Shown: positions 32,102-60,978, numbered from the stretch's first letter. The stretch: 64,000 nt of DNA from Phycisphaerae bacterium (GCA_029260075.1 JAJDDY010000012.1:2176-66175); one strand, 5' to 3'. Program-made: numbers and translations. The notes: generated from the sequence alone by a model not told the origin.

Positions 32102-33043
32102 TCACGCGCTGATTTTTGATAGGGACGCCGTCGCCGCGAATCCGGCCACGGCCAATACGGCGCCGAACACATAGTCGCTAGCTACAGCGTCACCGGCGAA
32201 AGGCCAGATGCCCACGATCGAGCCGAGAAGAATGCCCAGAAGAAATCCAAGCGTGGGTTGTTTCTTGTGGCGAAGCATCCACTTCAGAACATTGCTGAGC
32301 AGCACAAGGCTGAGCAGCGACCCCAACGCCACCGGACCGAGCACCTCAATCACGAGCGCGACGTCGCCCTCGCGACCGGACGATGACGCCAAGTTCTTGG
32401 CCATGTCGATAGCGGCGAGTATGTGCTCGTACCGGCCTAGGATAAGAAGCATGTAGGCGCCGGAAATTCCGGGTAGGACCATGGCGGACATGCCCAACAC
32501 GCCGGCCAAGAGGTCGCGCACGTACGCCGGTTGAATGATCATTTGGCCTGCGGCGACGGATTCCTTGAGGGCTGCTTTGGCTGATGGGTCTTGCCCGGTC
32601 ATCGCAATCGCGACCATGGCCCCCACGCCGAACAGTAGGCCAATCCACGATGCGGGAGTGAACGGACGAATCATGTGTAAAAGCAGCGGCGCGCCACCGA
32701 GCGTGAGTCCGACAAAAATAGAGAACATAGCCTGGCGCTGGACGACAACGATGTGGGCGACAGTGCCGGCCATGGTCACGATGGCTGTGGCGGCGGCCCC
32801 GCCAATCACGATTAGAATGAGCAAATCGCGTCGACGAAAGCGCAACCGCGTGACGTTGGCGACGGCGGCTATGAAGTCGTCGTAGAGCCCCATCACCAGA
32901 ATCATCGTACCGCCGGAGACGCCGGGTACGAGGTTGGCGAAGCCCATCAATACGCCCCCGATCGAACACCGTACCAGAGGCACTGGCGCCGGAGGTGTCG
33001 ACGAGTTTTCTTCTGTTGGCGGACCCGGATTTGTTTCCATCAT
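32102..33043 (-). CDS. DUF368-family membrane protein (undecaprenyl-phosphate translocase family)
   Basis: Two DUF368 repeats: NLVPGVSGGTMILVMGLY and MVLPGISGAYMLLILGRY. Polytopic membrane protein. Start is uncertain (ATG 33043 preferred over 33097). Confidence 0.85.
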   Translation of the reverse strand: MMETNPGPPTEENSSTPPAPVPLVRCSIGGVLMGFANLVPGVSGGTMILVMGLYDDFIAAVANVTRLRFRRRDLLILIVIGGAAATAIVTMAGTVAHIVVVQRQAMFSIFVGLTLGGAPLLLHMIRPFTPASWIGLLFGVGAMVAIAMTGQDPSAKAALKESVAAGQMIIQPAYVRDLLAGVLGMSAMVLPGISGAYMLLILGRYEHILAAIDMAKNLASSSGREGDVALVIEVLGPVALGSLLSLVLLSNVLKWMLRHKKQPTLGFLLGILLGSIVGIWPFAGDAVASDYVFGAVLAVAGFAATASLSKISA

Positions 33044-33145
33044 CAATTCGTAGCCCACCAAAAAAGTGTGGCCGACGTTCGGGCCGTGATTTCGCACGCG
33101 TCTTCAGCCGGTTTTGAATCTTCGGGTCGGTCTACCACTGGGCTT

Positions 33146-33169
33146 GAGTCGCTTCGGCGGAAGCGACTC
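33146..33169. terminator. Perfect 10-bp stem / 4-nt loop hairpin downstream of the tilS-GT-C-AsmA operon
   Basis: GAGTCGCTTC-GGCG-GAAGCGACTC. No U-run, so the terminator role is tentative. Confidence 0.4.
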
Positions 33170-33174
33170 AGGAA

Positions 33175-33303
33175 CTAAGAACGTGTATCAGAAGTCTCTC
33201 TTAGAGCCGCGCCCGTAAGGAAGCGGTGCGGTTTCGTGGTCGACAACCGCTTCCTTACGGTCTCGGCTCGGTTTGAAGCAACCCTTCCTAAACACGCTCT
33301 TCG
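33175..33303. repeat. Family-A nested palindromic element, copy A3
   Basis: CTAAGAACGTGTA...GAGCCGCGCCCGTAAGGAAGCGG-loop-CCGCTTCCTTACGGTCTCGGCTCGG...AACACGCTCTT. Confidence 0.8.
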
Positions 33304-33324
33304 GGACGACGGGTTTATTGCATG

Positions 33325-36300: not shown

Positions 36301-36936
36301 TACCTTCGGAGCGTCTACGCTGCGCCAGGTCACGTCGTGGATGTATGGATCGTTCTTGGAAGGAAGCGATCGCAGCGTGAGGCTAAGGTTGTCCACTTGT
36401 CGCGACACGCCGTGTTCCAACGAAAAGACACGGAGTCGCGCGCGGTTCAACTCGATGATCGGCCAGTCCGCAGTGTTTGTAGGTGCGATCTCAGGAACGC
36501 GGAACAGTCCGCGGAGGTTGGTGCGCTCCGTGATAGCGTCGCGGACTACGGTGAGAATGGGTTCTGTCGCAAGAATCGACGTGATCTTCAATGATCCCAG
36601 CAGCGCCGGTATGGTTTTGTGAACCAGGTGTACCTCGCGACACGCGAAGACGGGATGCGTGGAAGCCATCGACGGTTTTTCGTCGAGGTCCGGCTGCGGT
36701 ACGACCGCTACGTCGAACAATCGGATGCCCCCGCGCCAGGAGAAGTTTGCTGAACCCACCGTAACGCGACCGGTGACGTATTGCTGAAGATATGTCTCAG
36801 CCAACATCCGGATGCGCGCCGGGTTCGTCAGGTGGGCGTACGCGAAGTATCCGGCTAGGGTCGCCGCGACGGCGACGCAGACCGCGATCCGTCGACCGGT
36901 CAATCTTGCTTTAGGGATGGCTTGTTGTTGCGTCAT
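33325..36936 (-). CDS. Large membrane-anchored AsmA/TamB-like protein (1203 aa)
   Basis: ATG 36936 overlaps the upstream stop (ATGA). N-terminal TM helix (IAVCVAVAATLAGYFAYA), a long beta-rich body and an AsmA-like C-terminus (FDDIRLRGDLLALTGRGTLSVPDRGVDFEL). Family assignment is moderate. Confidence 0.65.
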   Translation of the reverse strand: MTQQQAIPKARLTGRRIAVCVAVAATLAGYFAYAHLTNPARIRMLAETYLQQYVTGRVTVGSANFSWRGGIRLFDVAVVPQPDLDEKPSMASTHPVFACREVHLVHKTIPALLGSLKITSILATEPILTVVRDAITERTNLRGLFRVPEIAPTNTADWPIIELNRARLRVFSLEHGVSRQVDNLSLTLRSLPSKNDPYIHDVTWRSVDAPKVSGHSQIDVRTGALRNVEGGLPAMKVEAVMLAIDAGYDGVGAWYDLLGLDGTVRATDYDLHSGDGADRSATIELAGAAISIPIDREEQKVPPEDRFVTFEHVEGKVRLTGDAMYASFTGRLHDSPCQVEMVIRTGVNSAVSLEDVEMDIKMSLTEFTLPRRGPDATPSEARLIRRFPPLAHFYDDYDPHGVVDVEIDVGLRPGQEQPVTVRRVKLTARQTDSSCRFFPYRVTGLSGVVEYAPEGVFLRNLQGRHGAGRLSVDGWLAAPKRWAEKELTIKGWGIPIDEALTASLSRRYATILDTFNPTGTIDVEVHLAQPQIDPDEHIRWATTTDVTLLDVSATYTKIPYPVEGLTGRLTFGDGRVVVDKVDGRAGAGEVTVDGTVSLARERVDDIDLAVRGTGLVIDDQLLTALPKTVRDRLAGGDISGAVDFESSVDSGVDVGSVTHTTTIRLRDADYRPDGMQTRIAGLEGTIVVTGDQILVQGVTGKVFGGRISAEGSMPYGDTDAEHTLMVRTEGLSLNDDTLRAELPEALRRTLSGWRIEGPVSTVTFLPVRGNRKRAPSTPTTIATLDGAALTHEGVAVSLTDVRAEVTFDKAGVRATDTSFRIGDRAVTADVAIERLKQGERGRFRVSAKGLPLDGPIGQLQLDGWTERWKRWKPTGTVDLEVSDLSFEQADDDAPRVWTVSAVAELQGVSVGGVIDNFENLSGTVMGRGMILDPSDGASLMGELALDKLDAFGHPLSALSGQWSFARVPDGTGMFSLQSACGELYGGTVAGRLDLSFDNQQSTYDLSTMLQGMRIESFIAHEQSTRDATQPSVDVRGVAAGRLCLTGTVGDASTTRGRGHFEINEAQLYRLPLILAILNVLNVTAPTTTAFSDALLDFYVTGNRLTFDDIRLRGDLLALTGRGTLSVPDRGVDFELYNVNPDGWVRVPVLTDVVEQVGRELVRLHVTGPLYRPEVHAKPLRGLTEEFKRLFRKRKPKTGKSSAS

Positions 36937-38243
36937 GTTTCGTAACGGTTTGTGGCGAACGGATGAGGCCTCCCACGACCCAACATCCTGCATACTATGG
37001 TGAGGATGGCGTACGAAGCCAGCACGTCAAGCATCGGCAACGCCCCCAGACGATAACGGACACTTCCAATAAACAGGCTGTGTACTAGGCTCAAGTATAG
37101 TGCGGGCAGCACGAGGTACACCGCCCATTGCCACCCCTCGCGCCGGCGCGTGAACAGTAGCAGTATGGCGCCGAGCGCCGCCAGGGCGAACGTCGACGCC
37201 GTCCAGGTGACGGAAATCAAACGGGTCCGCCCAGACTGGTAGCTATCGACATTTGGAAACGGATTCCACATGCGTTTCATCTTCACCGCGCCAAGTTTGA
37301 CGATTCGCATAGGGTCGGAGCCTATGGCTTCGAACGATCGGGAGAGAAAATATCGGTTCCACGCCGTCTCATCGAGCGACGCCACCTCGGCCATTTGTTT
37401 GACGTCGCCAAGATTGCTGGCGCCGGTCGCCTGCGGACCCACGCCGTCGTAGAGTGAAATGCCGCCGCGCGTGGTCAACCAGCACCATTCGCCGACCACG
37501 CGTTGATTGCGCGCCGCCCACGGTACAAGTGTCAGTACAATTATGGATGCAGCGATGACTCCGCCGAATATGGCACGGCGGGTGTATCCGGCTGTCGTCG
37601 CGACGATCAGTATCAATATCGCAGCCAATCCCAGTGACGACTCGCGGATGTAGACCGTACCCGCCGCCACCAGACCCAACGCCGCCCAGCGCGCCAATGA
37701 ACGCCCCTCGCCCTCGATCAAGACGACGGCGAGCCACCACAGTCCGATCAACGCGGTAACGAAGGCCGTTTCGGTGAGCAGGAGTGAGGAAAAGAAGATC
37801 AAGAACGGATCGAGGGCTACGAGCAGACCGGCTATCAAACCGGTACGTCTTCCGAAGAGTGCGCCGGCTAGACCGGCGGCGAACAGCGCCGCCATCGAAC
37901 CGATCACCCATTGCGCGGCGCGTGCGGTTTGCATCCCGCCGTCGTGACCGGTGAACAAAGACAGAAACGCCGGATAGAGCGGCATGCGTGTGGCTTGAAA
38001 ACCGAGTTCATCGGGCAATCCTTGCCCCGCGCGCAGCGCTTCGGCCATGGACCAATACTGCTGCTCGTCCGGAAACTGCAAACCGCTTTCGTGTCCGGCG
38101 TGGACCGGCCGGATCAACCCCCACCCGGTTCGGGCGGTAAGCGCAACGACAAACACGAGCGCGAGCGATCGCCATGCCGATTTCGTTGGCCGTGATAGCG
38201 TCAGCGCGGGGCTAGGTGCGTTGTCGGTCGGTGTGTCCATCAC
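36933..38243 (-). CDS. GT-C fold glycosyltransferase, family 39 / ArnT-PMT-like membrane protein
   Basis: Polytopic membrane protein. The first loop has PDEQQYWSMAEAL (DE-x-x-Y motif typical of ArnT/PMT_2). The start (GTG 38243 or ATG 38240) overlaps the tilS stop. Confidence 0.7.
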   Translation of the reverse strand: MMDTPTDNAPSPALTLSRPTKSAWRSLALVFVVALTARTGWGLIRPVHAGHESGLQFPDEQQYWSMAEALRAGQGLPDELGFQATRMPLYPAFLSLFTGHDGGMQTARAAQWVIGSMAALFAAGLAGALFGRRTGLIAGLLVALDPFLIFFSSLLLTETAFVTALIGLWWLAVVLIEGEGRSLARWAALGLVAAGTVYIRESSLGLAAILILIVATTAGYTRRAIFGGVIAASIIVLTLVPWAARNQRVVGEWCWLTTRGGISLYDGVGPQATGASNLGDVKQMAEVASLDETAWNRYFLSRSFEAIGSDPMRIVKLGAVKMKRMWNPFPNVDSYQSGRTRLISVTWTASTFALAALGAILLLFTRRREGWQWAVYLVLPALYLSLVHSLFIGSVRYRLGALPMLDVLASYAILTIVCRMLGRGRPHPFATNRYET

Positions 38244-39854: not shown

Positions 39855-40095
39855 GGGTGCCCCATTCTTCGCCGTAGGCGAAGGGAGGGGGACGGGCAGT
39901 TTACGAAAAGACCAACAGTCCCCCACCCCTTCGCGTCACCAGACACTTGTGCTTCCATATGGGGCGCTACACGGTGACGCGAAGAATGGGGCACCCGCAC
40001 CGGTCGCCGATTCGACTCCCCCACGGCTGAAGCCATGGGCCACCCAGCCGCCATCGCGGGTTGTGCAGGCTGGAAGCCCGCGCTACAAACCACTC
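39855..40095. repeat. Family-C composite repeat, copy C3 (longest), ending in a GGCTGGAAGCC-type hairpin
   Basis: GGGTGCCCCATTCTTCGCCGTAGGCGAAGG...CACGGTGACGCGAAGAATGGGGCACCC (39855-39996), then GATTCGACTCCCCCACGGCTGAAGCCATGGGCCACCC, then TGCAGGCTGGAAGCCCGCGCTACAAACC (40063-40092). Confidence 0.75.
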
Positions 40096-40118
40096 TGCCC
40101 GGTAGGATCAGGGAAGGG

Positions 40119-40222
40119 TTAGAACAAACCGAGCCGCGACCGTGAGGGAGCGGTTTTCACCCTCGAAACCGGACCGCTTCCTCACGGGCGCGGCTCGGGA
40201 AGAGGCTTCTTGAACACGTTTT
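40119..40222. repeat. Family-A palindromic element, copy A4
   Basis: TTAGAACAAACCGAGCCGCGACCGTGAGGGAGCGG-loop-CCGCTTCCTCACGGGCGCGGCTCGGG...GAACACGTT. Confidence 0.8.
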
Positions 40223-40376
40223 TTGCGCGTCGCCGCTGATCCGTTCGAAATCGGACATCGTCGATTCTGAGCCCAAACCGGCTTTCCCTCTCGGACCTAA
40301 CTAACCACGCGCCCCGGCCGGGCCGATAACACGTGCACGGCAGCGGTTTGCGCTGCCTTTGGGAGTGGTCCGCGCG

Positions 40377-41984
40377 ATGAGGTTATGCCTGATATCTCCG
40401 CCCACGACGGTCGCCAGCACGACCGGGCACTATCCGCAGGTTCCGCCGCTGGGGGTGGCGTATCTGGCGGCGGCGGTGCGCCATGGCGGGCATGACGTCG
40501 AGGTGGTCGACGGACTCGGAGAGGCGCTCGAGGCCTACCACCCGTTCGTGCGGGGGCAATTCCTGAACGGTCTTTCTATTGAGCAGGTCGTTGACCGGGT
40601 CGATCCGTCGGTCGACTTGATCGGCGTCAGTGTGATGTTCTCCAAGCAGTGGCCGGTGGCGCGGCGAATTGTGGCTGCGCTTCGTGAAGCCTTTTCCGAC
40701 ACGCCCATTGTGGTCGGTGGCGAGCATCCGACGGCGGCGATGGAACACGTGTTCGAGAGTTCCCCGGTCGACTACGTCGTGCTCGGCGAGGGCGAAGACA
40801 CGCTGTGCGCGTTGCTTGATTCGTTAGGACAGTCTCGCCGTCCCGACGTCTCACGAATCGCCGGCTTGGCCTATCGCCGATCGGCCATGTCTTGCACAAC
40901 CAAACACGGCCACATCAGTCTACCTATTTTCGGCGACCGCGTTTCCGGTGACATTGTCAAGAACGCGACTAGGCCACGTCGTCGCGCCCTCGACGCCCTC
41001 CCCTGGCCCGCGTGGGATCTGATCCCACTGCGTCGCTACATCGATGCCAAGCGATTCCAGGATTGCAGCGAGCGGCGAGTGATGGTGATGCTGGGTACGC
41101 GCGGTTGTCCTTATGAATGCAAATTCTGCTCGAACCCGCAAATGTGGACGACGAGCTTCTACACGCGCGACCCGGAGGACTTGGTCGACGAAATGGAACA
41201 CTACGTGCGTCAATACGACGTGTCGGAGTTCCAGTTTCAAGACCTCACCTTCGTGGTCAACAGGCGATGGGTGATGCGTGTGGCTGATGAAATAATCGCC
41301 CGCCAACTCGACATTGTATGGAAGCTGCCGGGCGGAACGCGTAGTGAGGCGTTCGACGCGGAACTGATGGCCAAGCTGAGCGAGAGCGGCTGTCGGTCGC
41401 TCTGCTTCGCGCCGGAGAGCGGTTCGCCGCGCGTGCTCGAAGCCATGAAGAAGAAGGCCGATCCGAAACGCTTCATTGAACTTGGGCGCATCGTCCGGCG
41501 CGACCGCGTCGATGTGGACATCACCGCGTTCATCATCATCGGATCGCCCGACGAACGGTTTCGTGATTTGCTTCAGACCTATTGGTTCATCGCTCGCCTG
41601 GCGCTGAGCGGTTACGACGGGATCATGTGCAGTCGGTTTACGTGTTATCCCGGGTCGGCGTATCACGAAGAGTATCTGAAGCAGGGGCTGATCGAGTACG
41701 ACGACGACTATTTTCTTGATCTCGATCTGAGTCTGGCGAACCTGCGACACGGTCGCAGTTGGCATCCCAGGTGGGGTGACAAGCGTCTGCAACTCTTCGT
41801 TATGTTCGGTTATGTCTTGTTTTTCTTGGTCTATTACGCATCTCGGCCGACGCGCGTGTGGCGTAGCGTGCTGGCTGTTTTGCGCAACAAGCCGACATCG
41901 CGCGTGGAGCTTGTCGTTGCGCACGGTCTCGGTGAACGACTGCGTCGCCTGTGGCGACGACAACCTATGGCGCCGGCGGGGTAG
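40377..41984 (+). CDS. B12-binding-domain radical SAM protein with C-terminal membrane helix
   Basis: ATG 40377. The N-terminal Rossmann-like domain (MRLCLISPP...PPLGVAYLAAAVRHGGHDVEVVDG...IVVGGEHPT) is a cobalamin-binding type. rSAM cluster motif GCPYECKFC. C-terminal hydrophobic helix LFVMFGYVLFFLVYY. Confidence 0.85.
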   Translation: MRLCLISPPTTVASTTGHYPQVPPLGVAYLAAAVRHGGHDVEVVDGLGEALEAYHPFVRGQFLNGLSIEQVVDRVDPSVDLIGVSVMFSKQWPVARRIVAALREAFSDTPIVVGGEHPTAAMEHVFESSPVDYVVLGEGEDTLCALLDSLGQSRRPDVSRIAGLAYRRSAMSCTTKHGHISLPIFGDRVSGDIVKNATRPRRRALDALPWPAWDLIPLRRYIDAKRFQDCSERRVMVMLGTRGCPYECKFCSNPQMWTTSFYTRDPEDLVDEMEHYVRQYDVSEFQFQDLTFVVNRRWVMRVADEIIARQLDIVWKLPGGTRSEAFDAELMAKLSESGCRSLCFAPESGSPRVLEAMKKKADPKRFIELGRIVRRDRVDVDITAFIIIGSPDERFRDLLQTYWFIARLALSGYDGIMCSRFTCYPGSAYHEEYLKQGLIEYDDDYFLDLDLSLANLRHGRSWHPRWGDKRLQLFVMFGYVLFFLVYYASRPTRVWRSVLAVLRNKPTSRVELVVAHGLGERLRRLWRRQPMAPAG

Positions 41985-42010
41985 CGGTATTGTTGTTGCG
42001 AAGCCGTCCG

Positions 42011-42083
42011 TGTGCGAGGCGAACAACCGCTCCCTTACGGTCGCGGCTCGGTTAGCGACGGTCTTTCTTGTACACGTTCTAAG
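42011..42083. repeat. Family-A element, half copy A5 (one arm plus loop, inverted)
   Basis: TGTGCGAGGCGAACAACCGCTCCCTTACGGTCGCGGCTCGG...GTACACGTTCTAAG. Confidence 0.7.
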
Positions 42084-42179
42084 CACAGGGCGTCCGTATT
42101 GTGTGACTTCGACGTGTTGCCCGTGGTTCGCACAGTGGCGGATCGACAAACGCCCCGATAGCTGTCGGGGATCGGAATA

Positions 42180-43466
42180 ATGACCATGTGGATGATGGTA
42201 TTGGCATTTGGGATCGCGACGTTGCTGCTGGCGTGGCTGTTGTTCGGCTATGTCGTGTGGCTTCGTTTTGTGGGGGATACGCGCCTTCGCGATGACGCGG
42301 CCGTGCCCAGTCAACTCCCCTTTATGTCCATTATCATACCCTGCCTGAATGAACAGTCCATGATCGTCGACAAGCTCGACAATGTGCTGGCGTCAGACTA
42401 CCCGTCCGACAAGATGGAGATTGTGGTCGCGGATGGCGGGTCGACGGACGGAACATTGGCGTTGGTCGAGGGCATCGCTCGTGACGATCAGCGCGTACGT
42501 CTCGTTCACTGTTGCCGTGGTGGAAAGATTAACCAACTCAACGAAGTGCTACCCACCCTTCGCAGCGACTTGGTCGTCGTGACGGACACCGACGCACGCA
42601 TCAACAGCAGCGGACTGAGTTGGGTGGCGGCCGAGTTCTGCGCCGACGCTGATGTGGCTGTGGTCGGTGGATATACGTCGCCAAGCGGCGGGCTTGCGGT
42701 GGAGCGTTGCTATTGGGCGGCTCAGAACCGGATTCGACTCTTGGAGAGCAGCGTGTTGCACGTGTCCACAGTCGTGGCGTGTTGCTACGCGTTCCGGCGC
42801 GATCTGATCGACCGCTTTCCCGACGACGTGATCGCAGACGATGTATACATCACCGCTGTGGCCAACACGCGCGGCCACAAGACGGTCTACTGCCCGCGTG
42901 CCGTGGTCAAAGAATTACGCACGCCGCAAACCCTACCGGAGTTTTTCCAACACAAGTTCCGTAAGAGCAACGCGGTGCTTCGCGAGCTCATGCGGTTTGC
43001 CTACGCCCTGCCGGATATGGACTCGCGCTGGAAGTCGATTCTTAGCACACGAATTGTCCAACAGCTATTGCTTCCGTGGGCCACCGGAATTTGGATCGCC
43101 CTCGGGGTCGCACTGGTCAACCTTGGTCAATGGGATGTTCCGGTGCTCGGTGCGTCGCTTCTGTGCGTGATGCTTCTGGTGACCCGCAAAGCCACACTGT
43201 CCGTCGAGTTGCCGGGTGATCCCGAGCGGTTCGGACCGGTGACGCTCGGGCTCGCCTATGTGTACACAATGGCTATCTGCTGCGCTACGGCTGTCACCTA
43301 CTTGTCGTTTCGACAAACGAGTTGCTACGCCCGCGTTGGCGGAGACTTGAAGAATAGCGAACAACCGAACCTTGTCGGGTCCGTAATGACGAAGCCGGCG
43401 TCCGATGTGGTTTCAGTGATGCCAACCGTTAGCGGTTTCACGCTTGCGGTGGGCGAATCGAAATAG
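42180..43466 (+). CDS. Family 2 glycosyltransferase with flanking transmembrane segments
   Basis: MSIIIPCLNE...EIVVADGGSTDGT...VVTDTDAR (GT-A fold, DxD). TM helices before and after the catalytic domain, an ArnC/GtrB/HpnI-like architecture. Confidence 0.85.
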   Translation: MTMWMMVLAFGIATLLLAWLLFGYVVWLRFVGDTRLRDDAAVPSQLPFMSIIIPCLNEQSMIVDKLDNVLASDYPSDKMEIVVADGGSTDGTLALVEGIARDDQRVRLVHCCRGGKINQLNEVLPTLRSDLVVVTDTDARINSSGLSWVAAEFCADADVAVVGGYTSPSGGLAVERCYWAAQNRIRLLESSVLHVSTVVACCYAFRRDLIDRFPDDVIADDVYITAVANTRGHKTVYCPRAVVKELRTPQTLPEFFQHKFRKSNAVLRELMRFAYALPDMDSRWKSILSTRIVQQLLLPWATGIWIALGVALVNLGQWDVPVLGASLLCVMLLVTRKATLSVELPGDPERFGPVTLGLAYVYTMAICCATAVTYLSFRQTSCYARVGGDLKNSEQPNLVGSVMTKPASDVVSVMPTVSGFTLAVGESK

Positions 43467-43529
43467 GGTTTCTTGCAAGGCGCTCTCGGTGAGCGTGGCT
43501 GCCACGGTGAACGAACTTCGTGGCGTTGG

Positions 43530-45176
43530 ATGGAACGAATGGCACAGGCTTTGACTACCCATACGACTTGGACGCTGCCGCGCGTTGATCTGCGCGACTG
43601 GCGACCGGTATTGCTGGTCGTACTTTTTCTGGCGGTGGTCGTGCGCGTCTCCATGCTTGGATTCGACAGCCTGTCGCACGCCGAAGCCGGTCGAGCGAAC
43701 GATGCACGATGGGCGACGCTGTCGGAGATGCGATGGTACCCGCCGCTTCAATACGCCGTGCTCTGGGCTGTGCGAAGTTTCGTCGGTAAGGGTGAGCTCG
43801 TGCTGCGTCTGCCCAGCGCTCTAGCCGGCGTAGCGTGTGTGGCTGTGCTGTTCATGTTCACACGCCGATACGTCGACGCCTGGTCCGGCGTGTGTGTGGC
43901 CGGTGTGGCTGCGTTTCATGCGGAACTCGTCACACAGTCGCGCATTATGAAGGAATTCAGCATCGAAGCCTTGATGGCGATCATTCTCATGTGGGCCGGA
44001 TTGGCGGCGGCCACCCATCGGACCACGCGAAGTCTCATTACGTTCGCAGCAATTGCCCTGTTGGCCATGCTCTTGACGTATACCGCGCCGCTCATCGCCG
44101 CGTCGTGGTTGCTGGTGATCGGGTTCCTGCTGATTCGCAACTCGGAAACCCACAAGCAAATCCCCTGTTTCGTGGGTGTCGCGATCGCGTTGGCTATTGG
44201 TGCGGGACTATCCTATCTATGGCTCTCTGGGGCATTCAACAAGAGTGGAGCCTACAAAGACTACGGCATTGTCAATGGTGCTTGGCCCATAGCGTACGAT
44301 GTGGAAACCCTTGCTCTATGGGTGGTTGCCCAAAGCTATGGGGCCATGCGATTCGTTCTTGGCATATCTCCCCTCTACGCACCCATCGACGCGCTGATCG
44401 GTGGGTATGAGATCCTGCTGATCGCAGTGGCGGTCACCGTGTTGTATCGAAGGGTGCCCGCGCTCTGCGCCGCAACTGTCGTGTTGGTTCTGCTCACAAT
44501 GGTCGCGGGTGCCGCCAGGTTCTGGCCGTTCGGCAATTTCCATACGCAGACTTTTCTCGTTCCGCTTGTTTGCGTCGCTGTGGGATGTGGCCTTCGCCGT
44601 GCGGCTACGCAGTTGAAATCTCGCCCGGCGATAGCTGCGCTGGTGTTGGTCTGCCTGATTAACCCCGCCGCACGCGCCGTGAAGAACACCGTAGTCAGTC
44701 CCCCCGTCTCCGAACACCTGCGTCCGGTCCTTGAATATGTGAATGTCCGCGCCGAGCGCGACGACGGCATTTTCGTGTACTACGCTGCGGCGGCTGCTAC
44801 ACGCTACTATTGGGAGCGACGCGACATTGGAATTCTCACCCAGACGTACAAAGATCGTGGTCACGTCGACAGGTTCCTGGCCCGTTTCGATCGGTTCATG
44901 GCCGACCACAATCGGGTCTGGTTCGTTTCGACACACGACATCAACGACGAGCGCAAAACATGGACGGCGGCGCTTCAACGGAAGTATACGTCGGTCGACG
45001 AGTATGAAAGTGAAGATGCGGCCGTAACGTTGTTTGTGTCCGTGGATCGCGCTGCGATGACCGAGTCGACGAAGATTGGTCGTTCAGTGCGTGAGGCGTT
45101 GGTCAGTCCGCAGCAGGATGCTACGGCCGCCATTAGCATTCGAACCGACTCCACACCGGAAGGAGCGCCAAATTGA
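43530..45176 (+). CDS. GT-C-like (ArnT/PMT_2-type) polytopic membrane protein
   Basis: About 12 predicted TM helices with the first periplasmic loop after VLLVVLFLAVVVRV, and a soluble C-terminal domain. Start is uncertain (TTG 43473, ATG 43530 or ATG 43539). Confidence 0.6.
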   Translation: MERMAQALTTHTTWTLPRVDLRDWRPVLLVVLFLAVVVRVSMLGFDSLSHAEAGRANDARWATLSEMRWYPPLQYAVLWAVRSFVGKGELVLRLPSALAGVACVAVLFMFTRRYVDAWSGVCVAGVAAFHAELVTQSRIMKEFSIEALMAIILMWAGLAAATHRTTRSLITFAAIALLAMLLTYTAPLIAASWLLVIGFLLIRNSETHKQIPCFVGVAIALAIGAGLSYLWLSGAFNKSGAYKDYGIVNGAWPIAYDVETLALWVVAQSYGAMRFVLGISPLYAPIDALIGGYEILLIAVAVTVLYRRVPALCAATVVLVLLTMVAGAARFWPFGNFHTQTFLVPLVCVAVGCGLRRAATQLKSRPAIAALVLVCLINPAARAVKNTVVSPPVSEHLRPVLEYVNVRAERDDGIFVYYAAAAATRYYWERRDIGILTQTYKDRGHVDRFLARFDRFMADHNRVWFVSTHDINDERKTWTAALQRKYTSVDEYESEDAAVTLFVSVDRAAMTESTKIGRSVREALVSPQQDATAAISIRTDSTPEGAPN

Positions 45177-46057
45177 AGAGCGTGGACGCAATCCGTGAAG
45201 AGGAATATACCGATTGGACGACGAACGCGGCGTTCTACGTGGGCGACGATGAGTCTCCGTTGATGCAAGAACTCGCGATGCGCCGGGACCGATACTTCGA
45301 CCTTCGTCCGGGGGACCGAGTCTTGGACCTCGGTTGTGGATCGGGCGCTGTGGTTGCGCGACTTCGCAAGTGTGGCGTCGATGTCGTGGGCGTGGACTAC
45401 GCGGAGGCCATGGTCGACGTCGCCCGGGAAACATACGGTCTCGGCGACAAGGTTCGTCGCATGGATGCGACCGACCTGCAGTTCGAGTCGAACTCGTTCG
45501 ACGTTGTACTCGCCAATGGTGTGCTGCATCATTTGACGGTTCAGGAGCAACTGGACGGTGCGCTATCGGAAGTTCACCGCATACTGCGACCGGGCGGCCG
45601 GTTGTGCTGTTTCGATCGCAATGGAAGTTTCGCATCGGCTGCACTGACGCATTTGTGCGTCAACGTCAAGGAAGCACTGCGCGTGCTGACTCGGCGGGAA
45701 CGCTTCGCCAGTTGCGCATCACGCAATGAGATATCCTTCGGCGCCCCGCGCGATCTGAAGCGGATCGAACGCGCCGGGTTCTCACTCCACGAGCGAATGG
45801 ATGTATCTACGGTTCCGTTCTTCCTCTCCGTGGTCACGATGAACGCGACACAATACTTCCTATCCGAACGTCTCCGTCGCTTTGCTGAAGCCAAGCTGCA
45901 GCGATCGATGAGTTGGATCGACGGATGCTTGAACTGGCGATGGCTTTCGATCGAGCAGTTTGTGATTTTTCATAGGTGCGCCTCGGTGGCTGTGATGATG
46001 ATGCCGGCGCCGGAACAGTCGACGACGCCGAATCAGGTTAGTCCGGCGGCGGTATAG
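45173..46057 (+). CDS. Class I SAM-dependent methyltransferase
   Basis: Motif I VLDLGCGSG, plus VGVDYAEAMV and VLANGVLHHL. The start overlaps the previous stop (TTG 45173 or GTG 45182). Confidence 0.88.
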   Translation: MKSVDAIREEEYTDWTTNAAFYVGDDESPLMQELAMRRDRYFDLRPGDRVLDLGCGSGAVVARLRKCGVDVVGVDYAEAMVDVARETYGLGDKVRRMDATDLQFESNSFDVVLANGVLHHLTVQEQLDGALSEVHRILRPGGRLCCFDRNGSFASAALTHLCVNVKEALRVLTRRERFASCASRNEISFGAPRDLKRIERAGFSLHERMDVSTVPFFLSVVTMNATQYFLSERLRRFAEAKLQRSMSWIDGCLNWRWLSIEQFVIFHRCASVAVMMMPAPEQSTTPNQVSPAAV

Positions 46058-46069
46058 GTGTAAGGAACC

Positions 46070-47173
46070 ATGAACGCACACCCACACGAACTTGTTGGCT
46101 TGACCTGTGAAGGCAGAGCACTGGCGCCGTCTGCGACGGATTCACAAGCGGAGGAACTGTCGCGCCGGCCAGGTTGGCTGATGCGTCGGTCGCGTGTTCT
46201 GCGCGATGTACTCCTTCCACGACCCGTAGCCCGTGGTGTGCCGTTTGAATATGTCATTGAGGTGACCAGTCGGTGCAATCTACTGTGCCCGATGTGTCCG
46301 AGAGAAATCAGTCCAAGCGTCGGCAACAAAGACATGGATCTTAATACGTTCGATTCCGTAATCGATCGCATCCGCGATGATGCGTCGTTCGTCTGGCTGG
46401 CCGGATTGGGCGAGCCGATGATGAGCAAACATTTCATTGAGATGATTCGTCGCTGTAAAGACGCTGGTATTGCGACCGGGGCGTCGACGAACGGAACGTT
46501 CTTGAATCCTACGTGGCAACAGCGACTACTCGACATTGGGTTGGATCTTCTGATCGTTTCGTTCGACGGCGCCAACAAGGAGACGTACGAGAACATTCGC
46601 GTGGGCGCGGACTTCGACAAAGTGTGTACGAACGTGCGCGACTTCGCGGCCATGAAAGTGGAACGTCGTGTCGAGAAACCGTGGTTGATTCTGCAGATGA
46701 TCGAATTGGCGCCGACCCGCGGGCAAGGTCAGGCCTTCCGCGACATGTGGAACCTTCCCGGTGTCGACGCAGTACGAGTAAAAAAAGACGAGTTGCAGTT
46801 TGAAGAATCGCTGGCGTTTGAAGGTCAGCGCAAACGGGATGGCCGCCGGACCTGCCCCTACCTTTGGCGCGGGACGATGTACATCCATTCTGACGGCGCG
46901 ATCTCACCATGTTGTTATGGTCACCACGACAAGTCGTTCGGACGAATACAAGACGCATCTGTCTCGCGACTTTGGAACGGTCCGAAGGTTCGCGCGCTGC
47001 GCGAAGTTCATCTCGCCGGTGGCGCCGGCGACGAGGCGTTTTGCAAGAACTGCCATACGTTTCAACCCGGCAGCGTCTCCACTGCAGCATCTGTCCTCGT
47101 CCCAAGCCTGACACAAAAGAAACATGCGGATGTCGTGGAGAAATTGAACCGATGGGTACGATTCATGGAATAG
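46070..47173 (+). CDS. Radical SAM protein with SPASM-type C-terminal Cys cluster
   Basis: VTSRCNLLCPMCPRE (CxxxCxxC). The C-terminal CPYLW...SPCCYGH...FCKNC is typical of SPASM/twitch auxiliary-cluster domains. Confidence 0.85.
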   Translation: MNAHPHELVGLTCEGRALAPSATDSQAEELSRRPGWLMRRSRVLRDVLLPRPVARGVPFEYVIEVTSRCNLLCPMCPREISPSVGNKDMDLNTFDSVIDRIRDDASFVWLAGLGEPMMSKHFIEMIRRCKDAGIATGASTNGTFLNPTWQQRLLDIGLDLLIVSFDGANKETYENIRVGADFDKVCTNVRDFAAMKVERRVEKPWLILQMIELAPTRGQGQAFRDMWNLPGVDAVRVKKDELQFEESLAFEGQRKRDGRRTCPYLWRGTMYIHSDGAISPCCYGHHDKSFGRIQDASVSRLWNGPKVRALREVHLAGGAGDEAFCKNCHTFQPGSVSTAASVLVPSLTQKKHADVVEKLNRWVRFME

Positions 47174-47188
47174 CCGCCGATTGAACAA

Positions 47189-47222
47189 GTGTGGCGCCGG
47201 ATTCCAGTCGGTGATCCATCTG
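47189..47222. repeat. Family-B hairpin repeat, copy B5 (diverged)
   Basis: GTGTGGCGCCGGATTCCAGTCGGTGATCCATCTG, 16 nt after the SPASM rSAM stop. Confidence 0.65.
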
Positions 47223-47255
47223 CTCGAATGTTCATAAGTCTATGGAACTGTCGTT

Positions 47256-48647
47256 ATGAGAATTCTCTTACTCTCGCCGCCATATAAAACGGACTATATG
47301 CGCAACGCACGCTGCGATTTCGTCTCGCTCTCCTCATCGCAGTGGTACCCCCTTTGGTTGGGATACGCCGGCGCCTGGCTGGAACAGCAGGGACACGAAG
47401 TCAAACTCATAGACGCACCCGCCGCCCACCTCGACCACGAAGCCACCACCCGCGTTGTCACCGATTGGCGACCGGATATGTTGGTCGTGTACACCGGTCA
47501 GAAGAGTCGCGCCAATGACGTCCGCGTGGCTGACCGTCTCGCGGAATCGCTGGGTTGCATGACCGTGCTCGTTGGGCCTTACTTTTCAGCTAGTCCTAAA
47601 GAGACGTTTAACGAGTCGCAAGCAGTCAACTACGGAATCGCGGGGGAGTTCGATCATCCGCTGGCTGAGCTTGCGGCTGGTATGCCGCCGTCGGAGATCA
47701 AGAACCTGCTCTACCGTGACGGTGATCGAGTCGTTTGTAACGGTCGCCGACCGTTCCTAACCAGCGAGCAACTCGATGAAATACCGTTTGTCAGCCGGTT
47801 CTTTGATCGACAGATCAACCTGTACGACTACAAGACCATCTCCGAGTATTACCCGTTCGTTGATATCATGAGCGGTCGTGGCTGCCACTGGGGTCAGTGT
47901 ACGTTTTGCCTCTGGGTTCATACGTTCGTTACGGGCAAGACCTACAACCTGAGAAGCGCGGACAATCTCGTCGAAGAGCTGTCGTACATCGAACGCGACC
48001 TGCCGAAGGTGCGATCCATCATGATTCAGGACGACATGATGACCGACGAACGGGCTGAGGAGGTTTGTCGTTTGAAGATCAAGCGCGACATCAAGCTGTC
48101 GTGGTCGTGCTATGCGCGGTGCAACCTGAGCTTGGACGTGATGAAGCTTATGAAGAAGGCCGGCTGTCGCAACCTCCACGTCGGCTACGAATCGGGCGAT
48201 CCGCAGATCATCAAGAACATCCGCAAGGGCGTCACGCTCGACGTCATGCAGCGATTCACACGCGACGCGAAGAAGGCCGGCCTGCGCATCCACGGCGACT
48301 TCGCCATCGGGTTTCCGGGCGAAACCAAGGAAAGCGTCGACCGGACGATTCTGTTCGCCAAACGCCTGAACCCGCACACCGCACAGTTTCAGTTGGCCAA
48401 CGTGTTGGAGGGCACGCCGTTCTTCGACACCTGCCAATCCAACGGTTGGCTGACGGACGAGGGCGAACCGAACTATCCAACGTTCTCCAACGTCGACATG
48501 CGTGCAGCCGCCAAACGGGCGTATCGATCCTTCTATCTGTCGCCGCGCTGGATGCTGCGGTGCTTGCAACACCCCTACGAGAATTTCTTCGGACGGGTCA
48601 AAACAATGACCGTCGCCCTGCCCGCCATGCTCTGGCGACACTGGTAA
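47256..48647 (+). CDS. B12-binding-domain radical SAM protein (HpnJ-like N-terminal pattern)
   Basis: MRILLLSPPY...SQWYPLWLGYAGAWLEQQGHEVKLIDAP and GRGCHWGQCTFCLW. From memory the pattern resembles HpnJ-type class B rSAM enzymes. Not verified. Confidence 0.8.
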   Translation: MRILLLSPPYKTDYMRNARCDFVSLSSSQWYPLWLGYAGAWLEQQGHEVKLIDAPAAHLDHEATTRVVTDWRPDMLVVYTGQKSRANDVRVADRLAESLGCMTVLVGPYFSASPKETFNESQAVNYGIAGEFDHPLAELAAGMPPSEIKNLLYRDGDRVVCNGRRPFLTSEQLDEIPFVSRFFDRQINLYDYKTISEYYPFVDIMSGRGCHWGQCTFCLWVHTFVTGKTYNLRSADNLVEELSYIERDLPKVRSIMIQDDMMTDERAEEVCRLKIKRDIKLSWSCYARCNLSLDVMKLMKKAGCRNLHVGYESGDPQIIKNIRKGVTLDVMQRFTRDAKKAGLRIHGDFAIGFPGETKESVDRTILFAKRLNPHTAQFQLANVLEGTPFFDTCQSNGWLTDEGEPNYPTFSNVDMRAAAKRAYRSFYLSPRWMLRCLQHPYENFFGRVKTMTVALPAMLWRHW

Positions 48648-48684
48648 GGCCGTGCGTGAGAAAACGTATTAGCGGGTTGGCGAT

Positions 48685-48768
48685 GAACCGAGCCGCGCCC
48701 GTGAGGAAGCGGAAGTTTGAGAAGCGGCCGGGACAGCTTGAAACCACTCCTTCACGCTCGCGGCTCGG
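48685..48768. repeat. Family-A element, copy A6 (loop subtype 2)
   Basis: GAACCGAGCCGCGCCCGTGAGGAAGCGGAAGTTTGAGAAGCGGCCGGGACAGCTTGAAACCACTCCTTCACGCTCGCGGCTCGG. Confidence 0.8.
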
Positions 48769-48891
48769 ATCGGACGAACCCGCCACTTACGGCGTGACGA
48801 AGCGCTAGTGGGGCTGAACCACTGGCGAATTCGTCCGCGATCGCATAGACTTGCCGTATAGGGCGACGCACGTCGTCCACGGAGTAGATTG

Positions 48892-50187: not shown

Positions 50188-50287
50188 TCGCTTCGCGGTC
50201 CGGTGGCGTCGACTAGCGGCGTCCTCATTCAACGGAGGCGATCGCCTAGGGAACTACAGATTGGGGCCGGGCGGTACGTTGTCTTCG

Positions 50288-50410
50288 GACGTGTATGAGA
50301 AGGACCGTTGCGAACCGAGCCGCGACCGTGAGGGAGCGGTTGTTCGCCGCGCACATGGACCGCTTCCTTGCGGGCGCGGCTCCGAAAGACCCTCTTAGGC
50401 ACGGTCCTAA
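50288..50410. repeat. Family-A element, copy A7 (between E2 and E3 genes)
   Basis: GAACCGAGCCGCGACCGTGAGGGAGCGGTTGTTCGCCGCGCACATGGACCGCTTCCTTGCGGGCGCGGCTCCG, with outer arms AGGACCGT/ACGGTCCT. Confidence 0.8.
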
Positions 50411-50486
50411 CAGAAGAATATGAATCCGGACGATTGACCGATCAGGCTGGGGGTCGCCTGAACACAGATAGCAGGGACGCAATCGC

Positions 50487-51911: not shown

Positions 51912-51996
51912 GAACCGAGCCGCGACCGTAAGGAAGCGGAAGTTTGAGGTCCGGCCGGGACCGCTTGAAACCACTCCCTTACGGTCGCGGCTCGGT
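51912..51996. repeat. Family-A element, copy A8 (loop subtype 2)
   Basis: GAACCGAGCCGCGACCGTAAGGAAGCGGAAGTTTGAGGTCCGGCCGGGACCGCTTGAAACCACTCCCTTACGGTCGCGGCTCGG. Confidence 0.8.
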
Positions 51997-52025: not shown

Positions 52026-54209
52026 CTAGCGCGGTTCGTCGCGTAATCTACGCTCCTCTTCTGCCGCTTGTCGTGACCCCTCCGTGTCTCCGAGTTCGCT
52101 CAGCACGACCGAAAGAAACCCGTACGCATCCGCGTCGCGCGGGTTCAGGTCGATGGCACGGCGGATGTGCGGGACGGCGTCCGCCGGACGACCGGCCATG
52201 AACGTGGCTACGCCGAGATTGTAGTGGGCGAGCGCGAAGGAGGGGTCGGCGGTTGCGGCGTCTTCAAGATGTGTGATGGCCTCCTCAATCTCGCGCCGAT
52301 TGAGCATGGCCATGCCAAGGTGGTAATGGACCGTGTGCAAATCTGGGTCGAGCTTCGCGGCTGTGCGCAGCGCTTCGATACCTTCATCCGTACGACCGAC
52401 CTGCAGCGCCGTGATTCCGAGTAACGCATGCCCCGGCGCGAAGTCGGGATGTCGTTGTACCAAGGCCATCAGTTCCGCGATGGCATCGTCCGTCCGTCCG
52501 ATTCTCGTGAGCAGTTGCGCCAGTGACATGGACCATTCCGTCTCATCCGGGCGGGCGTCGATGCCACTGCGGTATACGGTGATGGCGTCATCGAATCGGT
52601 CTTCGTCAATGAGCATCGAGGCCAGTTCGCGGCGGGCCGCCGAAAACGACACATCCAACGACAGTGCTTTGTCGTACGACTGCTGTGCCTCGTCGATGGC
52701 ACCCTGCCGGCGACGGACACCAGCTAGGCCACGGTAGGCGCCGGCGAACTTAGGCGCAATGTCGATCAAGCGGTGCAGCGCCGCCTCGGCGCGATCACAT
52801 TGATCCTTGGCAAGGTACAACCACACCAGATCGACAAGCACGTCCGGCGTGGTCATGAGGCCCCACCGATCGGGGCGCCTAAGCAGCGCCACAGCCTCAT
52901 CAGCCTCGCGCCGTTGCGCTGCCGATGCGTCTCGCCACCACGCACTGTTGGCGTACCAGACGTCGTCGCTGATCGACAGCTTGGTCATGGCTTGATGCCC
53001 GCGCCACGCGGCGGACTGTACCGCGGCACTGTGTCCGAGCAGGACGAACGTCGCCGCCGCAATCACGACCGCCCAAGCGCCGGACTTCGTCAACCGCCCA
53101 CCACGCTTGAGTTGAAGATTCTGAAAACGCACGTTGCTGTCGCGAATAAGACGGAGGGTCTTGATGGCGGCGAAGGCGGTCATGGCCGCCAGCGCCATGG
53201 CGAGAAGCAGCGGGATGCGTCCATACAGCCCGCGACATGTTCCCAGCGTCACCAGACCCACAACGATCGCGATCAGCTCCTCGCCGATGGAGAAATCGAA
53301 GCGCGACGCCGACGCGATACGTCGGACCTGTGCAGCCACCGGCGGTGTCGCCAATCCAAAGTGCAACGCGTCGTTGGGGCAAACGCTGACGCAGTCCATG
53401 CACTTCATACAACCCGGATCGACGACCATGCCGTACTTGGCGACCTCTTCGTGAACGCGGACGTTGGATGTACACGCCGCCGTGCAATGGCCGCAATGCT
53501 GACATGCGTCTGTCACCAAAATGCGACCGGTGGCGACTTGGTCCAGTACGCGGAAGAAGCCGCCGTAGGGACAGGCGTACGTGCAGAAACCCTTCGAGCC
53601 GAGAAAATAGACGATGACGAATCCACAGAACACGACCGACAGAACGGCGACGACCAGACCGGGAAACGTGGCCCAATAGGTTGTCGTCATGAGATGGTTC
53701 GACAGCGCCGGTCGGACGCCGCCCATCCACGCCCGGTAAGCGCTTGGCCAGACGAACATGTACACCGCCAGAGCGAACGGCGCGAACACGAGGAATCGCG
53801 AGCGAAACGGCTTGGGTTTGATCCCCGCGCGTCTGAGCAACCAGGCGCAGAAGTCTTGATAGGCGATGAGGTGACATCCCCATCCACAGACGAACCGACC
53901 CAGCGAGAGCGTTGCGACGAGGGCCAGCACGAAGAAGATGAATCCGGCGTTGACGTGGCCGTCGTTGAGCGTGTACATCGCTTCCGACGGTTCGATCGGA
54001 GACAGCGTCTCGCCACGGATCAGCCAATGAACGACGTGACCGATCATCAGGGCGTGAACCGTGATCAGCGAGGTCGCCCGCCATCGGCTCATACGCGAGC
54101 GGCGCACGGGACCAGCCGCATTGGGCAGGACCGGTAGGGACGCGCCGGTCGCGCTTGGTCTTCGCTCTGTGCGGTTTGGCTGAGATGTCGGTGTGTCGTT
54201 TGCCATCAT
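52026..54209 (-). CDS. Membrane polyferredoxin (NapH/MauN-like 4Fe-4S protein) fused to a C-terminal TPR domain
   Basis: CGWGCH, CTYACPYGG, CQHCGHCTAAC and CMKCMDCVSVCP motifs within a multi-TM N-terminal half. The C-terminal ~330 aa carry repeated TPR-like units (A..Y..AL..DP..A.A...LG). Confidence 0.8.
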   Translation of the reverse strand: MMANDTPTSQPNRTERRPSATGASLPVLPNAAGPVRRSRMSRWRATSLITVHALMIGHVVHWLIRGETLSPIEPSEAMYTLNDGHVNAGFIFFVLALVATLSLGRFVCGWGCHLIAYQDFCAWLLRRAGIKPKPFRSRFLVFAPFALAVYMFVWPSAYRAWMGGVRPALSNHLMTTTYWATFPGLVVAVLSVVFCGFVIVYFLGSKGFCTYACPYGGFFRVLDQVATGRILVTDACQHCGHCTAACTSNVRVHEEVAKYGMVVDPGCMKCMDCVSVCPNDALHFGLATPPVAAQVRRIASASRFDFSIGEELIAIVVGLVTLGTCRGLYGRIPLLLAMALAAMTAFAAIKTLRLIRDSNVRFQNLQLKRGGRLTKSGAWAVVIAAATFVLLGHSAAVQSAAWRGHQAMTKLSISDDVWYANSAWWRDASAAQRREADEAVALLRRPDRWGLMTTPDVLVDLVWLYLAKDQCDRAEAALHRLIDIAPKFAGAYRGLAGVRRRQGAIDEAQQSYDKALSLDVSFSAARRELASMLIDEDRFDDAITVYRSGIDARPDETEWSMSLAQLLTRIGRTDDAIAELMALVQRHPDFAPGHALLGITALQVGRTDEGIEALRTAAKLDPDLHTVHYHLGMAMLNRREIEEAITHLEDAATADPSFALAHYNLGVATFMAGRPADAVPHIRRAIDLNPRDADAYGFLSVVLSELGDTEGSRQAAEEERRLRDEPR

Positions 54210-56727: not shown

Positions 56728-56784
56728 GGCGCGGGCGTCAGCAGTTAATGCGTTGTCACGACTCAAGTGACGGGTTGGTCCGAT

Positions 56785-60976: not shown

Positions 60977-60978
60977 CG

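Follow-up and report, generated by a model that had tools for sequence, protein, structure and literature searches.

A conserved gene cassette around a sister family of HpnJ in a Phycisphaerae genome, with a possible role in remodelling membrane-anchored sugars

Here we describe a cluster of six genes from Phycisphaerae bacterium (GCA_029260075.1), found at positions 40377-48647 of a 64,000-nucleotide stretch (JAJDDY010000012.1:2176-66175) that we call the window throughout. The six open reading frames (ORFs) are co-oriented on the + strand, full-length and uninterrupted; g6 is the gene around which the comparison with other genomes is anchored, and its family is referred to as J. Lengths are in amino acids (aa), and SAM stands for S-adenosylmethionine.

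g1, 40377-41984, + strand: B12-binding radical-SAM enzyme, 535 aa, motif CPYECKFC, hydrophobic C-terminal helix
g2, 42180-43466, + strand: membrane-integrated family 2 glycosyltransferase (GT2), 428 aa, GT21-like
g3, 43539-45176, + strand: polytopic glycosyltransferase of GT-C fold, 545 aa as called
g4, 45173-46057, + strand: class I SAM-dependent methyltransferase, 294 aa, motif VLDLGCGSG
g5, 46070-47173, + strand: radical-SAM enzyme with a SPASM/twitch-type C-terminal Fe-S domain, 367 aa, motif CNLLCPMC
g6, 47256-48647, + strand: B12-binding radical-SAM enzyme of the J family, the anchor gene, motif CHWGQCTFC

From g2 to g6 the genes are closely packed, with a 4 nt overlap of g3 with g4, a gap of 12 nt between g4 and g5, and one of 82 nt between g5 and g6; g3 has an alternative upstream start, a TTG at 43473, which would give a protein of 567 aa. 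The borders of the cluster are clear because its neighbours are unrelated housekeeping genes—a Pfam survey of the window places tilS, in opposite orientation, upstream and genes for components E2 and E3 of a 2-oxoacid dehydrogenase downstream. Domains were called by Pfam gathering scores, and NCBIfam was used in its June 2026 release; the six domain assignments of the initial annotation were each borne out by both scans, and all six proteins stay below the curated cutoffs of the NCBIfam models. A promoter and terminator scan gave no more sites than shuffled controls, and an Rfam scan of 38-51 kb matched no family, the cobalamin riboswitch being one example.

The J family

The protein encoded by g6 combines a B12-binding domain (PF02310, 41.8 bits against a gathering score of 32.1) with a radical-SAM domain (PF04055, 61.4 bits). 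Its best NCBIfam match is HpnJ (TIGR03471), which it matches over its full length at 338.3 bits, and the likeness to HpnJ that the initial annotation had suggested for the N-terminus of the last radical-SAM enzyme is therefore genuine. The alignment includes the N-terminal region, and both domains are common to the two proteins; however, the curated cutoff is 577.6 bits, and identity to an HpnJ from a Paraburkholderia plasmid, annotated by the Prokaryotic Genome Annotation Pipeline (PGAP), is 36%. The domain architecture is that of HpnJ, whereas the score, the cluster-binding motif and the association with hpnI, hpnK, shc and hpnH are not. Judged by sequence, g6 is HpnJ-like, yet not HpnJ.

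In all, 1332 homologues of g6 were scored and 226 metagenome loci recovered. Homologues at 53-76% identity, all with generic names only, occur in Phycisphaerae, other Planctomycetota, Tectomicrobia, Elusimicrobia, Endomicrobiia, Abyssobacteria, Lentisphaerae, Chloroflexota and Omnitrophica. Pairwise identity within J is 41-100% across phyla (median 53%), against 28-39% between J and HpnJ and 18-32% between J and the other B12-binding radical-SAM proteins of the same loci. The radical-SAM motif is equally distinctive: Cx4CxxC is found in 72/72 J members examined (71 of them with the longer form GRGCx4CxxC), whereas the canonical Cx3CxxC is found in 3/3 HpnJ proteins and in 62/63 paralogues from the same loci. 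In g6 the motif reads GRGC-HWGQ-C-TF-C, with C210, C215 and C218 as its cysteines (residues 210-218, window 47883-47909); C20, C101, C285 and C304 are also invariant in a 12-sequence alignment of the family. These identities and the Cx4CxxC motif set J apart, and we therefore place g6 in a distinct, strongly constrained sister family of HpnJ.

We found no NCBIfam model, no solved structure and, in the literature searched, no paper that covers the J family or the cassette, and searches on HpnJ-like proteins and HpnJ homologues, DVU_1556 and Sden_1168 returned nothing. A 2026 review of lipid-modifying radical-SAM enzymes names Tes, Mss, Gms, Grs, Gmm, Cds, HpnH, HpnJ, HpnP, HpnR, Jaw5 and ladderane candidates, and nothing J-like. 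In a recent survey, proteins above the TIGRFAM thresholds for HpnI and HpnJ occurred only in genomes positive for squalene-hopene cyclase (SHC) and HpnH (bioRxiv 10.1101/2025.07.29.667474); because J scores fall under the HpnJ threshold, the family is invisible to surveys of this kind. Identities as a ladderane enzyme, Tes, Grs, HpnP or HpnR were considered and rejected, since the NCBIfam scores all lie far under the respective cutoffs.

A conserved neighbourhood

About 100 loci were collected for comparison: 7 GTDB species genomes, 80 of the 226 confirmed JGI metagenome matches, and others through exact-protein look-ups. The census was made by de novo ORF clustering and then by hidden Markov models run on six-frame ORFs, and it covers the 44 loci with enough flank, here called long loci. 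In the gene strings below, G is a GT2 of the g2 family, J the g6 family, C a GT-C-like protein and g an AglJ/ArnC-like GT2. The neighbourhood centred on g6 recurs in about 90 loci of many phyla, with the following partners.

Class I methyltransferase: 36 of 44 long loci
Membrane GT2 of the g2 family: 33 of 44
Further B12-binding radical-SAM enzymes, up to four per locus: 31 of 44
NAD-dependent short-chain dehydrogenase/reductase (SDR), HpnA-like: 29 of 44
SPASM/twitch radical-SAM enzyme: 27 of 44
GT-C-like polytopic protein: 26 of 44
Soluble AglJ/ArnC-like GT2 (g): 14 of 44

The commonest gene string outside Phycisphaerae is G-S-E-M-(B)-J-C, and that of Phycisphaerae-type relatives is G-C-B-M-S-J. 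The SDR of the cassette has the hopanoid-associated epimerase HpnA as its best NCBIfam match (187 bits against a cutoff of 367), and the g family matches AglJ, ArnC and PpgS. Two Phycisphaerae relatives carry orthologues of all six genes in the order g2-g3-g1-g4-g5-g6: L015 (54-73% identity) and L098 (48-70%), the latter with four extra tailoring genes. Since the orthologues recur together in these two loci, and the J neighbourhood in about 90, the grouping is not a matter of chance. The initial annotation had taken the six genes for one candidate novel pathway, a view that our results do not refute: gene order is conserved in relatives, with g1 displaced, and the cluster as a whole has no strong match to a characterised pathway. 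At the other extreme are minimal loci with G and J alone (L005, L021 and L099), which suggest that the G-J pair may be self-sufficient; we propose g2 and g6 as the core of the cassette.

Three further associations were seen in single groups of loci. In L100, a 5.97 Mb contig (GCA_041320515.1) with the order G, methyltransferase, B12-binding radical-SAM enzyme, membrane protein, J, a gene of the URO-D family (17458-18213) lies directly 3' of J; this family includes MtaA-type corrinoid methyltransferases, and the gene could be a cobalamin-handling partner. Two Planctomycetota cassettes have ferredoxin genes (Fer4_13, 82-86 aa) directly after a B12-binding radical-SAM gene (L012 4196-4444 and L013 19640-19900); these may be dedicated electron donors, and the window cluster has none. 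In the marine loci L089-L094 (for example L093 5596-6393) a membrane protein with histidine boxes, resembling fatty-acid desaturases and hydroxylases, adjoins J, which hints at a lipid substrate.

The membrane glycosyltransferase g2

Pfam families that match g2 include PF00535, PF13641 and PF13506, the last at 37.3 bits against a gathering score of 21.7. Because HpnI scores 149 bits on the same PF13506 model, g2 is a remote member of this GT21-like family; the set PF13506/PF13641/PF13632/PF00535 is common to the two proteins. The catalytic motifs of the GT-A fold, the DxD and the catalytic aspartate, are present, in keeping with GT21-like membership. In an alignment of 24 sequences D90, D136xD138, D221 and K259-x-R261 are invariant, and D220, H258 and K262 are conserved in at least 90%; there is no QxxRW motif, its position being taken by H258-K-x-R-K262.

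The AlphaFold2 (AF2) model of g2, with a mean predicted local distance difference test score (pLDDT) of 86.8, has one transmembrane (TM) helix at the N-terminus and three at the C-terminus, together with a GT-A domain and interface helices. Sequence and fold agree on the nearest solved structure, the archaeal PcManGT (6yv7), which is the best sequence match among PDB entries (E = 9e-28) and the best Foldseek match (TM-scores 0.65/0.79), followed in the latter by hyaluronan synthase and BcsA; no polyprenyl-phosphate GT2 is found among the top 50 Foldseek PDB matches. PcManGT, a minimal membrane GT2 of the cellulose-synthase-like kind, is 23-24% identical to g2 and has no radical-SAM partners; it has been assigned to N-glycan assembly. 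The 19 NCBIfam matches of g2 include PgaC, NodC, HpnI, HpnB and CruG, the best being PgaC/IcaA (88.8 bits against a cutoff of 422); ArnC, GtrB and DPM1 are absent from these 19. In sum, g2 is cellulose-synthase-like and GT21-like, not ArnC/GtrB-like, and the ArnC/ArnT or GtrB/GtrC logic on which the initial annotation had modelled the pair of glycosyltransferases finds no support in it: its matches are PgaC, NodC, HpnI, CruG and PcManGT instead.

The putative tailoring enzymes g1, g4 and g5

By its domains (PF02310, 74.1 bits; PF04055, 65.9 bits) and its canonical CX3CX2C motif, g1 is predicted to be a class B, cobalamin-dependent radical-SAM enzyme. Its best NCBIfam match reaches 142 bits against a cutoff of 575, AprD4 (6fd2, E = 4e-13) is the protein of solved structure nearest to it in sequence, and its orthologues lie inside the clusters of L015 and L098 at 60-62% identity. 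The methyltransferase g4 belongs to class I, as seen from PF08241 (90.2 bits) and a GxGxG SAM motif in the form VLDLGCGSG; its best NCBIfam match is the DVU_1556 family (81 bits against 155), with orthologues in L015 (56% identity) and L098 (50%).

The second radical-SAM enzyme, g5, has PF04055 at 51 bits and the SPASM domain PF13186 at 46.5 bits against a gathering score of 21.5. Its C-terminal domain has five cysteines only, against the seven of the SPASM motif, and a single auxiliary cluster is thus possible; a twitch-family model matches at 71 bits. Orthologues are found in L015 and L098 at 67-68% identity, and relatives at 30-36% in Omnitrophica and other loci. The closest solved relatives of g5 by sequence are BlsE (7vob) and BtrN (4m7t), both at E about 1e-10, and that of g6 is, again, AprD4. 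AprD4 is a radical diol dehydratase whose substrate is an aminoglycoside sugar, BlsE a cytosylglucuronate decarboxylase and BtrN an aminocyclitol dehydrogenase; the similarities, which are remote (E = 1e-10 to 1e-15) and of partial coverage, all point to carbohydrate or cyclitol substrates for g1, g5 and g6. The three known enzymes differ from the present ones in gene context, and they act on soluble substrates in antibiotic pathways.

The GT-C enzyme g3

The initial annotation had described g3 as an ArnT/PMT-like polytopic protein, which agrees with its Pfam match (PF13231 PMT_2, 40.1 bits against a gathering score of 26.1) and with the fold of its AF2 model (pLDDT 82, predicted TM-score 0.81). 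The top 38 Foldseek PDB matches of this model are all GT-C enzymes, among them STT3, AglB, PglB, ALG12 (0.54/0.60), ALG9, ArnT (0.56/0.57), DPY19, Pmt, Emb and AftA, and on this modelled structure we assign g3 the GT-C fold. Membership of a named subfamily (ArnT, PMT or oligosaccharyltransferase, OST) does not follow: the sole NCBIfam match is Agl23-like (35.6 bits against 126), and a sequence search of the PDB gave no match. An OST identity was rejected although STT3 and PglB match in fold, because a reading of the sequence finds no WWDxG motif and the C-terminal domain is small; ArnT and ALG12 are, moreover, equally similar. E49 (545-aa numbering) is invariant in 14 sequences and lies in the first external loop, just past the first TM helix (residues 22-37), where it may have a catalytic role.

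The g3 family is small, with about 13 close homologues from Phycisphaerae-type metagenome-assembled genomes and metagenome contigs. In hhalign comparisons with GT-C-like families of other phyla, two families gave probabilities of 60% and 40%, and another two stayed below 1%; because this kinship is at best remote, C in our census denotes a functional class and not one orthologous group.

A proposed pathway

We read the six genes as the form that a widespread cassette for decorating a sugar anchored in the membrane takes in Phycisphaerae, combining lipid glycosylation and radical remodelling on the cytoplasmic face with a GT-C step on the periplasmic side; we would put the probability of this tentative reading at roughly 45%. 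As a first step, g2 would transfer a hexose from a nucleotide sugar to a membrane lipid acceptor at the cytoplasmic face, much as HpnI acts on bacteriohopanetetrol. The J enzyme g6 would then abstract a hydrogen from the lipid-bound sugar and either rearrange its carbon skeleton, by analogy with the contraction of a pyranose to a cyclopentitol that has been proposed for HpnJ and Cds, or C-alkylate it. Further tailoring may be provided by g1, g5 and g4, with C-methylation or deoxygenation, oxidation or decarboxylation, and O- or N-methylation as candidate reactions. Finally, g3 would act at the periplasmic face, where it might extend the head group with a polyprenyl-phosphate-linked sugar or pass the product on. 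Intact genes, their domains and folds, the separateness of J and a conserved neighbourhood are observed; the acceptor lipid, the sugar, the type of each reaction and the order of the steps are all conjectural here.

Several observations argue for such a lipid-linked pathway. The adjacency of G and J mirrors hpnI-hpnJ(-hpnK) in annotated hopanoid loci, in that a PF13506-class membrane GT2 adjoins J in many loci just as hpnI adjoins hpnJ; the NCBIfam matches of g2 include GT2s of hopanoid and carotenoid lipids (HpnI, HpnB and CruG), alongside PgaC and NodC; and the solved structures closest in sequence to g1, g5 and g6 are those of carbohydrate- or aminocyclitol-modifying enzymes. A conceptual precedent for the second step is the calditol synthase Cds of Sulfolobus, an archaeal radical-SAM enzyme that gives glycerol dialkyl glycerol tetraether (GDGT) lipids a cyclopentitol head group by radical ring contraction of a lipid-bound hexose (PMC13459092); the comparison with g6 drawn here concerns this step, and its gene context, unlike that of g6, contains neither a GT-C enzyme nor several radical-SAM enzymes. 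The system of HpnJ, HpnI and HpnK differs as well: J has the CX4CX2C motif, a non-orthologous GT2 and no linked HpnK, SHC or HpnH, and its loci occur in other taxa and carry extra radical-SAM enzymes, a methyltransferase and a GT-C enzyme.

Other points weigh against this interpretation. The suggestion in the initial annotation that g2 could be HpnI-like survives at superfamily level only, g2 reaching 41.4 bits on TIGR03472 against a cutoff of 310 and sharing 23-24% identity (E about 1e-5) with two annotated HpnI proteins; its best structural match, PcManGT, is without an established lipid-alcohol acceptor. GT-C enzymes require a sugar donor linked to polyprenyl phosphate or diphosphate, and no synthase for such a donor is found in the cluster. 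The frequent adjacency of J and C fits a relay on a carrier lipid, set out below, at least as well. Within the cassette, g4 and g5 belong to other subfamilies than those of the commonest 'S E M J' block, and the HpnA-like SDR of the wider cassette is absent from the window. Lastly, the evidence for the HpnJ reaction itself is genetic only (PMC13459092).

A more specific version of our reading—that the phylum-spanning J cassette, probably an anaerobic pathway given its radical-SAM enzymes, equips bacterial membrane lipids other than hopanoids with head groups that are either carbocyclic, similar to calditol or a cyclitol ether, or sugars with heavy C-methylation—is attractive and at present doubtful. 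If true, bacteria would have an equivalent of calditol, and some environmental lipids still without an assignment might derive from it, together with a ring-contraction radical-SAM enzyme having an unusual CX4CX2C motif.

Alternative explanations

The main rival is a carrier-lipid relay, in which g2 loads undecaprenyl phosphate (Und-P), the three radical-SAM enzymes and the methyltransferase remodel the Und-P-sugar in the cytoplasm and, after a flip across the membrane, g3 transfers the product to an acceptor in the envelope, for example a glycan, a lipid or a protein; this comes close to the idea of the initial annotation. With its GT-C fold, g3 calls for a donor linked to polyprenyl phosphate, a GT-C-like gene lies directly beside J in many loci (and is present in 26/44 of the long ones), an SDR of the HpnA/ArnA type is common in the cassette, and 7 kb upstream the window encodes a PopT-like (DUF368) translocase for Und-P. 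The Arn pathway (the SDR ArnA, the GT2 ArnC, ArnD and the GT-C enzyme ArnT) offers a model, since it modifies its sugar while lipid-linked and has the same combination of GT2 and GT-C, with an SDR matched in the wider cassette. However, neither the sequence nor the fold of g2 shows any affinity to ArnC, GtrB or DPM1, and g3 does not match the ArnT family model; we also know of no radical-SAM tailoring in the Arn pathway. The classical polyprenyl-phosphate GT2 is a separate, AglJ/ArnC-like family, g, which fills that niche in some loci and tends to occur where the GT-C enzyme is absent (8 loci of pattern Gg- against 2 of pattern GgC). No flippase gene is conserved in the J neighbourhood, and the minimal G-J loci have no GT-C gene in cis. 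On balance we regard the relay as unlikely, and as a stronger contender than the three readings that follow, all of which we hold to be less likely.

According to the second alternative, g2 is a processive exopolysaccharide synthase of a poly-N-acetylglucosamine- or cellulose-like kind, with the remaining enzymes acting on its polymer or on the precursor of that polymer. PgaC/IcaA being the best NCBIfam match of g2 (88.8 bits), hyaluronan synthase and BcsA being strong fold matches, and the window stemming from biofilm metagenomes all speak for it. Yet the score is far under the PgaC cutoff of 422, H-K-x-R-K stands in place of the acceptor-stacking QxxRW motif, the model has four TM helices only, too few for a channel of its own, and no PgaA, PgaB, PgaD or Bcs partners are present; the radical-SAM enzymes, being cytoplasmic, would find a secreted polymer out of reach. 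This explanation is, in our view, quite improbable.

A third possibility is a divergent hopanoid side-chain pathway, with HpnI and HpnJ counterparts making a bacteriohopanetetrol cyclitol ether. HpnJ is the best named match of g6, HpnA that of the cassette SDR, and some Planctomycetota encode SHC (bioRxiv 10.1101/2025.07.29.667474). Against this, both g6 (338 against 577.6 bits) and g2 (41 against 310 bits) fall well below the hopanoid models, the radical-SAM motif of g6 differs from that of HpnJ, and the carriers include Omnitrophica, Elusimicrobia and Endomicrobiia. The expected partner genes are missing too: a Pfam survey and a scan for the SHC motif DxDDTA found no SHC or other hopanoid gene in the 64 kb window, no ORF with the SHC motif was found in about 1.2 Mb of flanks of related loci, and tblastn with HpnK found nothing in about 98 related loci plus the window, while HpnI gave weak matches in 4 loci, to G only. 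The initial annotation was thus right that this is not a standard hopanoid locus, and a divergent one is very hard to sustain.

Least credible of all is a soluble secondary-metabolite cluster of an aminocyclitol- or aminoglycoside-like kind, as the similarity to AprD4, BtrN and BlsE might suggest, given that g2 and g3 are both integral membrane proteins, that no cyclase, aminotransferase or resistance/export gene is present, and that the cassette is conserved over many phyla, among housekeeping genes.

Implications

To our knowledge, HpnJ-type chemistry, in which a lipid-bound sugar is remodelled by a B12-dependent radical reaction, has so far been recognised in hopanoid producers only. Under the lipid-linked reading that we prefer, the J cassette would extend lipid-sugar chemistry of the HpnI/HpnJ type to another family, another gene context and other taxa. 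J is a much more conserved sister family of HpnJ with a cluster motif of its own, it is spread over Phycisphaerae, other Planctomycetota, Omnitrophica, Elusimicrobia, Chloroflexota, Lentisphaerae, Tectomicrobia and more, and its partners recur—a GT2, an SDR, a methyltransferase, up to four more radical-SAM enzymes and a GT-C enzyme. The cassette thereby points to unexplored envelope biochemistry in largely uncultivated bacteria, with a gene set that is now defined well enough for testing. An acid-stable, cyclitol-type lipid product, if true, could matter for the interpretation of lipid biomarkers and for radical-SAM enzymology.

Repeats and other features of the window

Copies of two intergenic repeat families lie in and around the cluster.

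40092-40226, upstream of g1: full palindromic intergenic repeat, families D1/D3; hairpin of -61 kcal/mol, z = -4.7
42000-42083, between g1 and g2: inverted half-copy of the palindromic repeat; inverted pairs I5, I10 and I11
47184-47243, between g5 and g6: weak copy of the second intergenic repeat family, D2; 60% identity to the reference copy
48645-48803, downstream of g6: full palindromic repeat, D3/D6, inverted pair I1; hairpin of -42.6 kcal/mol, z = -3.1

The core of the palindromic repeat is AACCGAGCCGCG.CCGTGAGG.AGCGG, and its full copies form hairpin stems of about 30 bp; the half-copy at 42000-42083 has no stable hairpin of its own (z = +0.75), and the D2 copy at 47184-47243 has no significant fold (z = -0.07). 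The initial annotation had the cluster bracketed by such repeats. The repeats are real; however, further copies are scattered over the window (9767-9901, 18830-18964, 33175-33296, 50278-50412, 51912-51995 and 56750-56866) and one half-copy lies inside the cluster, so that they do not delimit it functionally. In addition, g1 is bracketed by inverted copies at 40127-40180 and 42000-42083 (pair I11). Because its orthologue sits between g3 and g4 in L015 and L098, g1 has moved in this genome, which suggests a local rearrangement mediated by the repeats.

Elsewhere in the window, dnaN and gyrB at its start (1-4135) suggest an origin-proximal region, and next to them, at 4201-6944, come genes for a histidine kinase with a protoglobin sensor and its partner, a sigma-54-dependent response regulator. 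A remnant of a Mu-like prophage head module (large terminase, Mu portal, Mu-like protease I and gpT major head protein) occupies 10385-16035. Shortly before the cluster, on the - strand at 32102-38243, a row of envelope genes encodes the DUF368/PopT-like undecaprenyl-phosphate translocase, a YhdP/AsmA-like protein of 1222 aa and a further GT-C protein with PMT_2 (436 aa), the last with no homologue in any related locus. Downstream of the cluster, 52026-54209 (- strand) encodes a 727-aa membrane protein with a polyferredoxin-like 4Fe-4S region and a long C-terminal TPR array. At 59510-63030, also on the - strand, selA and selB encode a selenocysteine synthase and the SelB elongation factor, and the organism is thereby equipped with genes for selenoprotein machinery.

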